64,000 nt of DNA from Candidatus Anaerostipes avistercoris (GCA_019119895.1 DWWD01000021.1:11789-75788), one strand, 5' to 3'; counted from the first letter of the stretch, positions 8,872 through 56,188 are shown. Numbers and translations: made by a program. Notes: generated from the sequence alone by a model not told the origin.

Positions 8872-9380
8872 AGGTATTCAACGATATGCAGCATACGATT
8901 CTTGCAGATCAGGAGCAGCGCACCAAAAACGAGAAGGCAAGAACGGATATGGCGGCGGGAATTTCTCATGATCTCAGGACGCCGTTGACGTCGGTTCAGG
9001 GATATATCAAGGGTGTTCTGGACGGTGTGGCGGATACGCCGGACAGGAAAAATATGTATCTTAAGACTGCCTATGAATCTACGGAGGAAATGAATGTCCT
9101 TTTTCAGAAGCTGTTTGATTTTTCCAGAATGGAGAGCGGACAGATGCCGTTTCATATGGTATCTGTGGATCTCGGGGAATTTACGGTATCCTGTGTGGCG
9201 CAGAAAGAAGCGGTCATGGATCCTGAAAATGCAGAGTTTACAATGGAACAGGATCCCGCATGGATTCCGGAAGTCATGCTGGATGTGGATCAGGTAAGAC
9301 GCATTTTTGACAATCTTCTGGAAAACAGTTTAAAATATGCCATGGTCCGGCCGGTGAGAATCCAGATCCGTCTCAGCTGA
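8865..9380 (+). pseudogene. internal fragment of a sensor histidine kinase
   Basis: End of HAMP, H-box ISHDLRTPLTS, N-box RIFDNLLENSLKY. No TM or sensor region; stops before the G1/F/G2 boxes. Confidence 0.8.
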
Positions 9381-52324: not shown

Positions 52325-53434
52325 ATGACGGAAGCCTATCTGTTATTGCCGGCGCTGATCTGGGTGCCTTTCGGCATTTATCTTTATCACATCATCGTCC
52401 GGTTTCTTAGTTTATTCCATACCTGGGAGAAAACGGCAGTTTCCAGAATCCTGTCTCTGGCGGTTACACTGTTTTGCGTCTCCAGAGGATGGATGCTTTA
52501 CGGGCTGGGAGCTGTTGTACTCTTTCATTTTCTGGCATTTTCCGCGGGAATGGAAATCGTGTGGCAGATCGGACGCAGGAAGATTCAGAAGGAAAAAACA
52601 AAAAGGAGGCTGCAGTTTGTATGCAAAAGCAGTATCGTAAGCCTTCTTCTGCTTGCCATTGTTTTTGCCTATGGCTTTTACAATATCAAAGACGTAAGAA
52701 GAACCCACTATAGTGTGGAAGCGGGGGAAAAGGAGGCGGATGGTTTCAGAATTGTACAGATTTCAGATCTCCATATGGGAACTACCATGGGGACAGAGGA
52801 ATTGAAGACATACTGCAGGCAGATAGAAAAAGAAAAGCCGGATCTTCTTGCGCTGACAGGAGATATTTTTGACGAGAGCACCACCAGGAGCGAAATGCAG
52901 GAAGCGGCCCGTCTGCTGGGCGGCATCCAAACCACATATGGAACCTATTATATTTTCGGCAACCACGATTATAATCTCTATACGCAGACGCCGTATTATA
53001 CCCGGGATGAGTTAAAAGATACGCTGGAAAAGGAGGGAATCCGCGTGCTGGAAGATGAAGTGACAAAGGCCGCGGACTGGCTGACTGTGATCGGACGGAC
53101 CGATGCGTCTCTGGACCGGGCGGAAATCAGCAGTCTGATGGATCAGGCGGATTCGGATTCTTTTATTCTTCTTCTGGATCATCAGCCGGAAGACCTGGAT
53201 GAAAATAAGGCGGCAGGAGTCAATCTGCAGCTGTCCGGTCATACCCATGCGGGACAAATCTGGCCGACAGGACAGCTTGGCAGCCTTTTCGGCGTAACAG
53301 AGCTGAACTATGGATACCGGGAAGATGGGGCTTATCATGTGATTGTCTCATCCGGAATCGGAGGGTGGGGTTACGCAATCCGCACCGGAGGACATTCTGA
53401 ATATGTTGTGATCGATGTAAATTCGGAAACTTAA
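52325..53434 (+). CDS. membrane-bound metallophosphoesterase (YkuE-like)
   Basis: N-terminal TM helices; SDLH, TGDIFD, GNHD, LLDHQP, SGHTHAGQ. Confidence 0.9.
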   Translation: MTEAYLLLPALIWVPFGIYLYHIIVRFLSLFHTWEKTAVSRILSLAVTLFCVSRGWMLYGLGAVVLFHFLAFSAGMEIVWQIGRRKIQKEKTKRRLQFVCKSSIVSLLLLAIVFAYGFYNIKDVRRTHYSVEAGEKEADGFRIVQISDLHMGTTMGTEELKTYCRQIEKEKPDLLALTGDIFDESTTRSEMQEAARLLGGIQTTYGTYYIFGNHDYNLYTQTPYYTRDELKDTLEKEGIRVLEDEVTKAADWLTVIGRTDASLDRAEISSLMDQADSDSFILLLDHQPEDLDENKAAGVNLQLSGHTHAGQIWPTGQLGSLFGVTELNYGYREDGAYHVIVSSGIGGWGYAIRTGGHSEYVVIDVNSET

Positions 53435-53510
53435 TGTTTCACTTGTAGTTTTTCCATGTTTCCAGTAGAATAAGGAGCGGAATCAAAGGAAATAAAACAG
53501 TGGAGGAACC

Positions 53511-54161
53511 ATGATGGGAAATAAGTATTATGCGGTAAAAAAAGGAAGAAAGCCAGGGATTTACGATACCTGGGATGAATGCAGGAAACAAACCCTTGGC
53601 TTTTCCGGTGCCGTCTACAAAAGCTTTAAAACCAGACCGGAGGCAGAGGCTTTTCTGACGCCTGGCGGGCATGAGACTATGACAGTGGATGAAGAGACGC
53701 TGACTGCCTATGTGGATGGAAGTTTTCAAAAAGATGACAAGGCATTTTCCTATGGCATGGTGATCATCCGGCCTGAACAGGAGGAGCTTTATTTTGCGGA
53801 GAAATATGAAGATGAGGATCTGGCCTCCATGCGAAATGTGGCGGGAGAAATCAAAGGGTCTGAAGCAGCCATGAAATTTGCGCTGGACCATGGCTATAAA
53901 AAGCTTGCCATTTATTATGATTATGAGGGAATCCGGAAATGGTGCACCGGAGAGTGGAAAACCAATAAAGAAGGAACCAGAGCATACAAAGCATTTTATG
54001 ATCAGAAGAAAAAAGATCTTAAAGTCAAATTTGTAAAGGTAAAGGGACATTCCAACGATAAATATAATGATATGGCGGATATGCTGGCAAAATCGGCTCT
54101 GGGAATCGGTGACGGAAGTTTTGCAAAAACAAGTGAAACCCAGTGGCATAAAGTAAAATAA
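53511..54161 (+). CDS. rnhA: ribonuclease HI with N-terminal hybrid-binding (viroplasmin/Cauli_VI) domain
   Basis: KYYAVKKGRKPGIY..WDEC...F.GA..K.F; then YVDGS, GEI, VKVKGHS, N..AD.LAK. Confidence 0.9.
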   Translation: MMGNKYYAVKKGRKPGIYDTWDECRKQTLGFSGAVYKSFKTRPEAEAFLTPGGHETMTVDEETLTAYVDGSFQKDDKAFSYGMVIIRPEQEELYFAEKYEDEDLASMRNVAGEIKGSEAAMKFALDHGYKKLAIYYDYEGIRKWCTGEWKTNKEGTRAYKAFYDQKKKDLKVKFVKVKGHSNDKYNDMADMLAKSALGIGDGSFAKTSETQWHKVK

Positions 54162-54183
54162 TAGCTGGAAGAAATGGGAACGG

Positions 54184-54211
54184 TTGACAGAAAAAACAGG
54201 AGTGCTATACT
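54184..54211 (+). promoter_or_regulatory. strong sigma-A promoter with no downstream ORF (drives candidate ncRNA)
   Basis: TTGACA-16 bp-TATACT with TGn extension. Confidence 0.75.
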
Positions 54212-54216
54212 TAAAT

Positions 54217-54317
54217 TGCCGCATCAGTTCCGGAAGGAGTGCAGGCCGCAGCCTGTATCGGAGGTGTCTAAGCTCACTTAAAGATTATTCTTAGAAACAC
54301 GCTCCGGCTGATGGGCA
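54217..54317 (+). ncRNA. candidate structured non-coding RNA, four-way junction, family not identified
   Basis: Manual fold: P1 TGCC-G-CATCAG/CTGATG-GGCA; P2 TTCC-GGAA-GGAG; P3 TGCAGGC-CGCA-GCCTGTA; P4 TCGGAG-GTGT-CTAAG/CTTAG-AA-ACAC-G-CTCCGG. Begins about 6 nt after the -10 box. Confidence 0.6.
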
Positions 54318-54353
54318 TTTCTTAAGTTTCAGACAAGTTTATGAAAAAAACAC

Positions 54354-54382
54354 TTGCAAAATGTTTTGTCTTATTATATTAT
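54354..54382 (+). promoter_or_regulatory. sigma-A promoter of the tRNA gene
   Basis: TTGCAA-17 bp-TATTAT. Confidence 0.6.
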
Positions 54383-54393
54383 AATATAGCTGT

Positions 54394-54466
54394 GTACCAG
54401 TAACTCAGTGGATAGAGTGGCAGCCTCCGAAGCTGTTGGTCGCGGGTTCAACTCCCGCCTGGTGCA
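54394..54466 (+). tRNA. tRNA-Arg (anticodon CCG)
   Basis: Cloverleaf: acceptor GTACCAG/CTGGTGC, D arm ACTC/GAGT, anticodon arm GCAGC-CTCCGAA-GCTGT, T arm GCGGG-TTCAACT-CCCGC. CCA not encoded. Confidence 0.97.
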
Positions 54467-54470
54467 TTTC

Positions 54471-54496
54471 AAAACCCGCGTACTTACGTGGGTTTT
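54471..54496 (+). terminator. tRNA terminator
   Basis: AAAACCCGCG-TACTTA-CGTGGGTTTT. Confidence 0.75.
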
Positions 54497-54558
54497 GTAT
54501 GAAAAAATATCATACATAAGAAATAAATCGAGTACAACAAAATAGGATTGTCAAGTAG

Positions 54559-54792
54559 GACTATAGATTTTTCTGTTTCTGACTATAAACAGAGATCTGT
54601 AGTCTTTTTATTTCACAGGAACATAGCTTCCTGTGAAATAAAAACGCTCCGCGAGGATCACACTGCGGCGGAGCGGATAGTGCCGCTTATGCGGCCCGCC
54701 GCAGGCGGAGAATCCTGCAAAGCAGGATTCTTTCCCGGTTCACAGGAACACCAGCTTCCTGTGAACCAGAAAACTGTGTTTCTATAAAACAC
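54559..54792. repeat. array of tandem palindromes (REP/BIME-like) upstream of the MATE gene
   Basis: At least 7 adjacent hairpins. TTCACAGGAAC..AGCTTCCTGTGAA occurs twice (54605-54644, 54737-54767); 54705-54734 is identical to 8331-8360. Confidence 0.75.
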
Positions 54793-54814
54793 GAAACTTG
54801 AAAGGAGACAAAAT

Positions 54815-56188
54815 ATGGATCAGACGTATATGAAAAAGAAACCGATCCTGCCTCTGCTCATGTCAATGGCTCTGCCGATGATCATTTCCATGTGTGTGAA
54901 TTCGCTGTATAACATTGTAGACAGTATTTTCGTGGCAAAGATCAGTGAGGACGCCATGACCGCGCTGTCACTGGTCTATCCGGTGCAGAATCTGGTGACA
55001 TCGATCAGTGTTGGATTTGGAGTTGGAATCAACGCAATGATTGCCATGTATCTTGGCAGCGGAAACGAGGAGAGAGCCGGAGCCGCCGCCACTCAGGGAA
55101 CACTGCTGAATGGAATTCACGGCGTTCTGCTGAATGTTCTGGGGCTTTTGTTTATGCCGGCATTTCTCAGAATGTTTACATCAGACCCGGAATTGATCGA
55201 TCTGGGACTTCGATATTCCACGATTGTATTGTGTTTTTCCATTGTCATTACCATAGGAATTTCATTTGAGAAAATCTTCCAGGCAGTTGGAAAGATGATG
55301 GTGACAATGATCAGTCTTTTGTGTGGATGTGTATTAAACATCATTCTGGATCCGGTTCTTATTTTCGGAATCGGACCATTTCCGGAAATGGGGATTGAAG
55401 GCGCGGCTCTTGCGACAGGAATCGGACAGCTGTCAACCCTTGTGATTTATCTTGTGGTTTATTTCCGGAAGCCGATCAACGTGAAACTTTCTTTCCGGTA
55501 TCTGAAACCGGAGGCAGAACTCTGCCTCAGACTTTATTCCATCGGGATACCGGCGACGCTGAACATGGCTCTGCCGTCTGTTCTGATTTCTGCTCTGAAC
55601 GGAATGTTCGCGGTATACTCTCAGACCTATGTCGTGGTCCTTGGAATTTATTATAAACTGCAGACGTTTCTATATCTTACGGCCAACGGTGTCGTGCAGG
55701 GCATGCGTCCGCTGATCAGTTATAATTACGGAGCGGGAGAACTGACGAGAGTAAGAAAGATATACAAAATATCTTTGACGATCATCGCTGCGATGATGGT
55801 GGTCGGAGTTATCATATGCTTTGCGGTTCCGGAAATGCTGATGAAAATGTTTACATCCAATCCGGATACAATCCGAATCGGTGTGACAGCCCTGAGAATC
55901 ATCTGTATCGGCTTTATTGCCTCCGCTGTATCGGTTACTTCCGCCGGAGCTTTTGAAGCGCTGGGTAAGGGAATTCAGTCATTTATGATATCCTTCCTCA
56001 GGTATGTGGCAGTGATCCTTCCGGCAGCGTTCATTCTGAGCCGGACCTTCGGTGCCGACAGCATCTGGAATGCTTTCTGGATCGCGGAATTTGTGACGGC
56101 AGCGGCAGCCTGGCTTCTGTACAGGAACATCTTAAAACCCCGGAAAGGCACAGAAGGAGAAGAGGTTTTGACAGAGAAATCAGAATAG
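54815..56188 (+). CDS. MATE family efflux transporter
   Basis: 457 aa, about 12 TM. LYNIVDSIFV, NIILDPVLIFG...MGIEGAALAT, SYNYGAG. Confidence 0.95.
   Translation: MDQTYMKKKPILPLLMSMALPMIISMCVNSLYNIVDSIFVAKISEDAMTALSLVYPVQNLVTSISVGFGVGINAMIAMYLGSGNEERAGAAATQGTLLNGIHGVLLNVLGLLFMPAFLRMFTSDPELIDLGLRYSTIVLCFSIVITIGISFEKIFQAVGKMMVTMISLLCGCVLNIILDPVLIFGIGPFPEMGIEGAALATGIGQLSTLVIYLVVYFRKPINVKLSFRYLKPEAELCLRLYSIGIPATLNMALPSVLISALNGMFAVYSQTYVVVLGIYYKLQTFLYLTANGVVQGMRPLISYNYGAGELTRVRKIYKISLTIIAAMMVVGVIICFAVPEMLMKMFTSNPDTIRIGVTALRIICIGFIASAVSVTSAGAFEALGKGIQSFMISFLRYVAVILPAAFILSRTFGADSIWNAFWIAEFVTAAAAWLLYRNILKPRKGTEGEEVLTEKSE

Follow-up and report, generated by a model that had tools for sequence, protein, structure and literature searches.

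Between a type 1 RNase H gene and a tRNA-Arg gene of Candidatus Anaerostipes avistercoris lies a strong promoter that is followed by no protein-coding gene, and the question raised by this locus is what the promoter expresses and what its product might do. The analysis covered a window of 64,000 nucleotides (GCA_019119895.1 DWWD01000021.1:11789-75788), the whole stretch of DNA under study, in which positions are counted from the first nucleotide (Table 1). The first-pass annotation had described a TTGACA-16-TGnTATACT promoter with no ORF after it, an RNA folding into a linker-free four-way junction, and a TTTCTT sequence followed by a separate promoter for the tRNA, and all of these were recovered. 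The promoter is the top-scoring promoter-like site within 53400-55000. ORFs across the element were limited to chance frames of 35-36 amino acids, and neither a start codon nor a reading frame was kept among homologues. Starting five nucleotides 3' of the promoter end, the plus strand yielded a minimum free energy (MFE) structure identical to the centroid (-43.3 kcal/mol; z = -3.5 relative to 200 shuffles), in which four helices, P1 to P4, abut without linker nucleotides and have limits at most 1 nucleotide from those first assigned. The U-rich tail, together with P1, is likely to be the 3' end or terminator tail, and a simple terminator scan made no call at 54318-54330. As judged from these sequence signals, from which the transcript, its ends and its abundance are predicted, the segment 54184-54330 is a complete small gene consisting of a strong sigma-70 promoter, an RNA of about 100 nucleotides and a U-rich tail.

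Table 1. Position of the RNA gene, its parts and its neighbours in the window
Feature	Position	Strand	Basis or remark
Type 1 RNase H gene (rnhA)	53511-54161	+	Upstream neighbour
Interval with about 190 bp (promoter, RNA, tail) absent in sister species G103	54124-54344	.	Limits approximate
Sigma-70-type promoter of the RNA gene	54184-54211	+	TTGACA, 16-nt spacer, TG, TATACT; 11 of 12 consensus positions
Structured RNA, about 101 nt, perfect four-way junction	54217-54317	+	MFE/centroid fold, covariance model, covariation
P1, 5' strand	54217-54228	+	Pairs with 54307-54317
P2: 3-bp stem UCC/GGA, GNRA tetraloop (GGAA in the window copy)	54229-54238	+	
P3	54239-54258	+	Base conserved; upper stem and loop differ in length and sequence
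P4, 17-nt apical loop in the window copy	54259-54306	+	
P1, 3' strand	54307-54317	+	MFE fold and covariation
U-rich tail TTTCTTAAGTTTC	54318-54330	+	Directly after P1; begins TTTCTT
tRNA-Arg promoter TTGCAA-17-TATTAT	54354-54382		Upstream of tRNA-Arg
tRNA-Arg(CCG)	54393-54467	+	ARAGORN, RF00005

The first-pass annotation had also suggested that the fold be examined for covariation in homologues. BLAST searches of 201 genomes of the same bacterial family returned 12 homologues from different genera, with 73-80% identity, and RNAalifold applied to these 12 sequences gave the same four helices, with compensatory double changes in 16 of 33 pairs. A covariance model built from this alignment (R1), which matches the window at 54216-54320 with 93.1 bits, was used to collect further copies, giving a final alignment of 100 distinct homologous sequences. 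Standard pairs occupied 95.0% of the pair cells in this alignment compared with 81% after shuffling, and sliding the partners by 1-3 columns reduced the paired cells to 33-52%. Both sides had changed in 19 of the 33 pairs, and the covariation score was reached by none of 500 shuffles. These comparisons indicate a conserved secondary structure that is kept by compensatory changes.

Covariation and invariance are distributed unevenly over the structure. In P1, the outer pairs are free to vary and 8 of 11 pairs have changed on both sides, while the inner C-G, A-U, G-C and U.G pairs are nearly invariant, the U.G wobble that closes the helix being kept in all 100 sequences. Two of the P2 pairs are invariant and the third covaries, and most homologues carry a GGGA loop. 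The conserved base of P3 reads G.U, U-A, G.U, C-G, G-C, G-C, the first G.U being kept in 92 of the 100 sequences and the second, at the third pair, in 90. P4 consists of a covarying 5-bp base, a 1-nucleotide bulge, a GUGU/ACAC segment found in every sequence, an A-rich bulge, a covarying distal stem and an apical loop; 8 of its 13 pairs change on both sides. The loop is 15-17 nucleotides long across the family, with a conserved YUCA at its 5' end, and varies by subtype, about 4-5 fixed bases being held in common and UCUCAC being the commonest form. Conservation peaks at the paired nucleotides that flank the junction and at GUGU/ACAC of P4, covariation is free in outer P1, the top of P3 and the base and distal stem of P4, and unpaired conserved nucleotides are almost absent. 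A linker nucleotide has been gained at the junction in no sequence of the family.

Mutual information over the 100 sequences revealed no covarying column pairs beyond the four helices, apart from alignment artefacts in distal P4. A pseudoknot or loop-loop contact was considered and discarded, as the P2 loop shows no covariation with the P4 loop and the lack of additional covarying pairs leaves no evidence for a pseudoknot. Read from the opposite strand, the invariant G.U wobbles would turn into C-A mismatches, so the plus strand is the functional one, in agreement with the strand of the promoter. In copies from two congeners (L176 and L177, from genomes G799 and G805, at about 1501-1609), the P2 loop is no longer GNRA (GUUCCUGACAGAGU) and P3 has become a long AU-rich hairpin, while P4 and the 3' strand of P1 match the window copy at up to 96% identity; either the P2 tetraloop is not strictly required, or these copies constitute a functional subtype.

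The first-pass annotation had held that the RNA fits none of the tRNA, 6S, SRP, yybP-ykoY and NiCo patterns and had proposed a search of Rfam. When Rfam 15 (4227 covariance models) was searched, the element matched no family at the gathering score, nor at E<=10 when 401 nucleotides were submitted. Eleven homologous loci gave no match at E<=1, and 121-nucleotide slices of two further variants gave none at E<=10. Individual candidates were discarded on more specific grounds. Both ARAGORN and RF00005 see only tRNA-Arg in this region, and the RNA has a variable P3 loop and no junction linkers. The SRP RNA models RF00169 and RF01854 match only contig C30 of the window's genome (G000) at 64923-65185, with 182.8 and 76.4 bits. 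The UCC-GGAA-GGA hairpin recalls the tip of SRP helix 8 (CAGUUCC-GGAA-GGAG compared with CAGGUCG-GGAA-CGAAGCAGC in the organism's own SRP RNA), but it has neither the symmetric nor the asymmetric loop of the Ffh-binding site, and a normal large SRP RNA is encoded elsewhere. P4 of the window copy contains three short words that we take to be shared with the L11-stalk region of 23S rRNA; they occur in reversed order and are missing from the commonest variant, and the resemblance was treated as coincidence. A small ORF or type I toxin was rejected, there being no kept start codon or frame and the stems covarying without a codon pattern. The conserved words of the RNA were not found in the literature searched, and the motif was found neither in three Breaker-lab surveys nor in the first 200 of the 408 supplementary files of a gut-microbiome structured-RNA survey; the main text of a virus structured-RNA survey does not mention it. 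The evidence supports well an undescribed family of a familiar kind, namely a stand-alone structured sRNA in a moron-like cassette.

Whether the RNA is a gene in its own right or the leader of a downstream gene was addressed by comparing the surroundings of its homologues. A -10 box matching at least 5 of 6 positions was present in 107 of 109 homologous loci, 90 of which had a perfect TATAAT. In 93 of the 109 loci, this box ended 13-15 nucleotides 5' of the conserved GUUC, that is, 3-5 nucleotides ahead of the first P1 pair, and the commonest -35 spacing was 17 nucleotides. In 64 of 107 loci, about 60%, P1 was followed by a T-run with at least five T among six positions. Among the 109 loci, the downstream gene shared the strand of the RNA in 41 and was encoded opposite to it in 55, and all-against-all clustering of 621 flanking ORFs revealed no family at a fixed position. 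The clusters obtained were generic ones, such as ABC ATPases, MATE transporters and histidine kinases, and a conserved neighbour or partner gene was discarded as a candidate. At the sequence level, the locus has the two attributes of a stand-alone sRNA gene, a promoter at a fixed distance and a 3' stem with a U-run. The fixed promoter, the T-run and the lack of a conserved neighbour or reading frame argue that the RNA is independently transcribed, and it most probably acts in trans.

These data bear directly on the possibility of a cis-acting leader or riboswitch that governs read-through into tRNA-Arg or another downstream gene. The window copy does sit 76 nucleotides 5' of tRNA-Arg on the same strand, and P1 with its U-run resembles a terminator. 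However, in 55 of 96 loci the downstream gene is encoded on the other strand, downstream genes are unrelated between loci, and phage copies are antisense to their neighbours. Furthermore, the tRNA-Arg promoter is intact in a sister species without the RNA (G103), so the tRNA has a promoter of its own. Strand-indifferent, unrelated downstream genes exclude a cis-regulatory leader, to which we attach next to no probability, and the first-pass reading of a stand-alone non-coding RNA rather than a riboswitch, with no recurring neighbour, held up. An independently transcribed RNA is the reading retained below.

Proximity to tRNA genes is not confined to the window. A tRNA gene was located within 260 nucleotides of the RNA in 22 of 109 loci, accounting for 24 tRNA genes, 19 of them on the same strand, while positions within that distance of a tRNA gene make up just 0.54% of the window's genome; the excess is several-fold even when scaled to intergenic DNA. 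At least nine tRNA identities are represented, on either side of the RNA. The association may reflect neighbourhoods shared by stable RNAs, transfer near tRNA integration sites, or a tie to tRNA metabolism. At one locus (L011 1492-1701, genome G117), the RNA promoter is missing and P1 begins about 4 nucleotides after the 3' end of tRNA-Ser(CGA), which leaves no room for a promoter and implies that the RNA is released from a tRNA co-transcript by tRNA 3' processing. P3 of the L011 copy carries a long insertion.

It is possible that the RNA is a tRNA-derived or tRNA-mimicking decoy that engages a tRNA-handling enzyme or a tRNA-targeting defence system or toxin. The four-armed shape, the mostly same-strand tRNA neighbours and the tRNA 3' processing implied at L011 point in this direction, as do phage positions where tRNA genes often sit and P4 loops that in some copies begin GGUUCAA and are T-loop-like. 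The RNA is, however, recognized by neither ARAGORN nor RF00005; it has no linkers, no 7-nucleotide anticodon-like loop and no CCA or discriminator, its P4 far exceeds a T arm, and the commonest P4 loop, UCUCAC, is unlike a T-loop. The varied tRNA identities on either side fit shared stable-RNA neighbourhoods equally well. We consider a tRNA decoy improbable.

The surroundings of the window copy offered some further observations. The product of the upstream gene (53511-54161) is of the RNase H1 type and has a double-stranded RNA/hybrid-binding motif at its N-terminus (MGNKYYAVKKGRKPGIY...). A hairpin and U-run after tRNA-Arg (54468-54499) gave weak partial Rfam matches (Leu_leader, 24.9 bits compared with a gathering score of 50), which reflect a plain intrinsic terminator. 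Between this terminator and a MATE-family gene (54815-56188), a series of GC-rich hairpins occupies 54540-54792; GCAAAGCAGGATTCTTTC from this series recurs at or near the ends of contigs C28, C31 and C42, which suggests a repeated, possibly mobile, element.

How widely the RNA gene occurs was determined with model R1, which identified one copy each in 48 of 400 genera of the family (12%). In these whole-genome searches the best 10 first-look candidates per genome were scored under strict filters, which may have passed over very divergent relatives. About 385 genomes from other families of the same class gave no matches, and the RNA family appears to be confined to Lachnospiraceae. Exact-word matches were obtained in Enterocloster citroniae, E. 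hominis, Hungatella hathewayi, Blautia celeris, B. hominis, Eisenbergiella porci, Waltera hominis, Marvinbryantia and Acetatifactor. Every holder genome carries a single copy, and the sharp limits of the family are evident from scores that do not trail off toward the threshold.

Within the window's own genus the RNA was present in 7 of 20 species and absent from three closed genomes. A direct view of an empty site was provided by sister species G103, in which the same rnhA/tRNA-Arg site lacks the RNA: the alignment ends at window position 54123 and restarts at 54345, with about 30 nucleotides between in G103, and rnhA is followed directly by the tRNA-Arg promoter. In G103 the 3' end of the rnhA coding sequence runs into the -35 box of that promoter (L169 1950-2190). 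The RNA occupies the window's site in two congeners and a rearranged form of that site in a third. In three other congeners it is located elsewhere, in DNA that is missing from the window's genome or represented there only by multi-copy genes, and homology there is restricted to the RNA and 10 nucleotides on either side. The unit that is gained, lost and moved is the gene itself, about 170-190 bp with its promoter. The RNA is, beyond what the first-pass annotation had described, a patchy accessory cassette, enriched beside tRNA genes and present in temperate phages.

Phage copies were sought in IMG/VR by word scans followed by the covariance model. Seven full-scoring copies (72-96 bits) were obtained, together with one that is cut off by the contig end (L180) and one that is truncated (L178). 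The L198 copy has a DNA helicase on one side and a late regulator, the small and large terminase subunits and the portal on the other; the L167 copy lies between an AAA ATPase and the small terminase, and the L179 copy adjoins tape-measure and endolysin genes. Among clear phage genes, the RNA was antisense to its flanking genes in five of six loci, the arrangement to be expected if a prophage expresses it as a moron. Four contigs have a 164-178-bp unit in common, extending from about 60 nucleotides 5' of the RNA to about 10 nucleotides 3' of it, with 93-95% identity; two of the four overlap identically, and the adjoining DNA does not align. A cassette of 168-176 bp is likewise common to phage contigs, with 94-95% identity, where the immediate flanks cannot be aligned. 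An autonomous unit between phage genes, present or absent by site, is what characterizes a moron-like cassette, and these copies, together with the empty chromosomal site in G103, agree with that description. Only a few chromosomal loci have genes in common with these phages, and most copies are chromosomal and outside recognizable prophages. Three different variants found no match in the GenBank phage and plasmid collections. On this evidence, phages are a demonstrated but minor vehicle.

HicB/HicA-like toxin-antitoxin genes, recognized by sequence motifs, were found near the RNA in the viral contig L168 (330-1364) and in three chromosomal loci, mostly just 3' of the RNA and on the same strand; their proximity probably reflects a shared accessory-island context and not a functional link. 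The truncated L178 copy (9192-9268, IMG/VR contig 3300006131_000053) is intact from the promoter through P1-P3 and as far as the 5' half of P4, and gives way to unrelated sequence inside the P4 loop. Its neighbours are parA/parB-like genes and an ORF resembling a DNA methyltransferase, and the copy may either have decayed or mark a junction formed by recombination or integration.

Alternatively, the element might act as DNA, for example as an integration site, a MITE or a cruciform, or the fold might have arisen by chance. The cassette does move as DNA, promoter included, several viral contigs end at or near the RNA, the L178 copy is truncated within the P4 loop, and the reverse strand of the element also folds well. 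Against this, the other strand would carry C-A mismatches in place of the invariant G.U pairs, the promoter lies at a fixed distance and on one side only, each genome has a single copy, and the loci have no neighbouring integrase or transposase in common. Nor would chance be expected to produce compensatory changes in 19 of 33 pairs. We regard a DNA-level element or chance fold as very improbable, and return to an RNA that functions in trans.

What, then, might such an RNA do? The explanation that we find best as a whole, and whose chances we judge to be about evenly balanced, is a single-copy mobile RNA gene whose product acts in trans, most likely by binding a protein. The RNA would be a stable folded particle with both ends shielded, the 5' end by base-pairing and the 3' end by the P1 stem and U-tail. 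Its invariant core would comprise the U.G pair closing P1, the UCC-GNRA-GGA hairpin, the G.U/U-A/G.U base of P3 and GUGU/ACAC of P4. As the invariant nucleotides are mostly paired and gathered around the junction, while the outer stems covary, this core may be the recognition surface for a partner. The partner would most likely be a protein, which the RNA could bind, sequester or deceive by mimicking a substrate. Protein binding is argued from the conservation pattern: the conserved nucleotides are paired, no linked gene is needed, and no extended antisense target turned up in the genomes searched, all of which favour a protein partner. Since the cassette appears to work in many genera and in phages without a linked gene, this partner would be a widely conserved host or phage protein, and, as prophages carry the cassette, a part in phage-host conflict or in the fitness of lysogens is plausible.

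It is also possible, however, that the RNA regulates by base-pairing, the P4 loop (5' YUCAC ... AUUAUCC 3') serving as seed and the junction as a stabilizing scaffold. Prophage-borne sRNAs are a known kind, and the gene stands alone with a promoter and U-tail as classical sRNA genes do. The P4 loop is the largest single-stranded stretch of the RNA and is partly conserved, and this semi-conserved loop could be a short seed. The strongest conservation is nevertheless in the paired junction nucleotides and not in the loop, which differs by subtype around its few fixed bases. No extended antisense target was found by BLAST in the window's genome, nor with the loop complement among the matches listed for 18 holder genomes. 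At 0-1 mismatch to the 15-nucleotide complement, the RNA gene was the only one of these listed matches; matches with 2-3 mismatches were equally frequent on both strands. BLAST against the organism's own genome yielded only codon-driven coincidences, an excess of 12-13-mers being traced to the coding word GTTCCGGAAGGA (Val-Pro-Glu-Gly), and this antisense target was discarded. Short seeds of 6-8 nucleotides are compatible with these searches. We consider a base-pairing sRNA unlikely, though a contender, and continue to prefer a protein-binding RNA.

A third possibility is a catalytic or ligand- or metal-binding RNA, either a new small ribozyme or a trans-acting aptamer, with a pocket formed by the junction, the three G.U pairs and a docked GNRA loop. 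Junctions of this four-way type occur in the hairpin ribozyme and in twister-sister, NiCo and yybP-ykoY RNAs. The compact multi-helix junction with invariant wobbles at helix ends agrees with this possibility, such junction G.U wobbles being also typical of metal-binding or catalytic RNA cores, and the size, patchiness and phage association of the family are like those of small self-cleaving ribozymes. Yet none of the ribozyme and riboswitch families of Rfam matches at E<=10, there are almost no unpaired conserved nucleotides from which to build a pocket, and no gene association points to a ligand. In addition, the promoter and U-tail bracket the fold exactly and so leave no flanking transcript to process. 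The catalytic or ligand-binding alternative is accordingly a doubtful one.

Comparison with known systems places the RNA among familiar kinds without assigning it to any of them. Like the lineage-specific orphan structured non-coding RNAs known from comparative genomics (the raiA-motif RNA, and Bacillaceae-1, which is found near rRNA and tRNA genes), it combines independent transcription, a complex covarying fold and strongly conserved nucleotides with the lack of a consistent gene association; unlike them, it has no match in Rfam 15, is much patchier (12% of genera, 7 of 20 congeners) and is carried by phages. With NiCo (czcD) and yybP-ykoY (Mn2+) RNAs it shares a length of about 100 nucleotides, four helices and conserved nucleotides near the junction, but it differs in having no Rfam match, no consistent downstream gene such as a transporter, and a U-tail right after P1. 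tRNA and tRNA-like RNAs (the tRNA-like domain of tmRNA, YrlA) likewise have four arms, and the proximity to tRNA genes and one co-transcribed case add to the likeness; the junction linkers, anticodon loop and CCA end of these RNAs are missing here. With regard to the Y RNA (YrlA) context, no Rsr/Ro-like or other conserved neighbour was found in the 109 loci.

Phage morons and prophage-encoded small RNAs, such as DicF and IpeX, offer a further comparison. As in these systems, the unit is self-contained, with promoter, gene and terminator, is mostly antisense to phage genes (L198, L167, L179 and L181) and is patchy in its hosts. In contrast, the cargo here is a conserved four-way-junction RNA spread over at least 48 genera, and not a protein or a lineage-specific antisense RNA. 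A bolder version of the protein-binding explanation, which we offer as a long shot, is that the cassette is an RNA-only 'moron' circulating between phage and chromosome, whose junction mimics tRNA or a Holliday-junction-like nucleic acid and thereby blocks or diverts a conserved protein of the host or of a rival phage; alternatively, it would represent a new class of small ribozyme. If true, an RNA-only moron would be a protein-free device for defence or counter-defence.

The combination of properties is unusual: a linker-free four-way junction with invariant wobbles, a near-universal strong promoter and strict single copy, together with a presence that differs between species of one genus and carriage by phages without a linked protein gene. 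At the least, there is good support for proposing the RNA as a new Rfam family, for which the alignment of 100 sequences is ready. Its holders include abundant, culturable bacteria of the human and animal gut (Enterocloster, Hungatella, Blautia and Eisenbergiella), so its function is directly testable. Should the RNA prove to bind a conserved protein or to take part in phage-host conflict, it would offer a rare case of an RNA-only accessory function that is traded horizontally.
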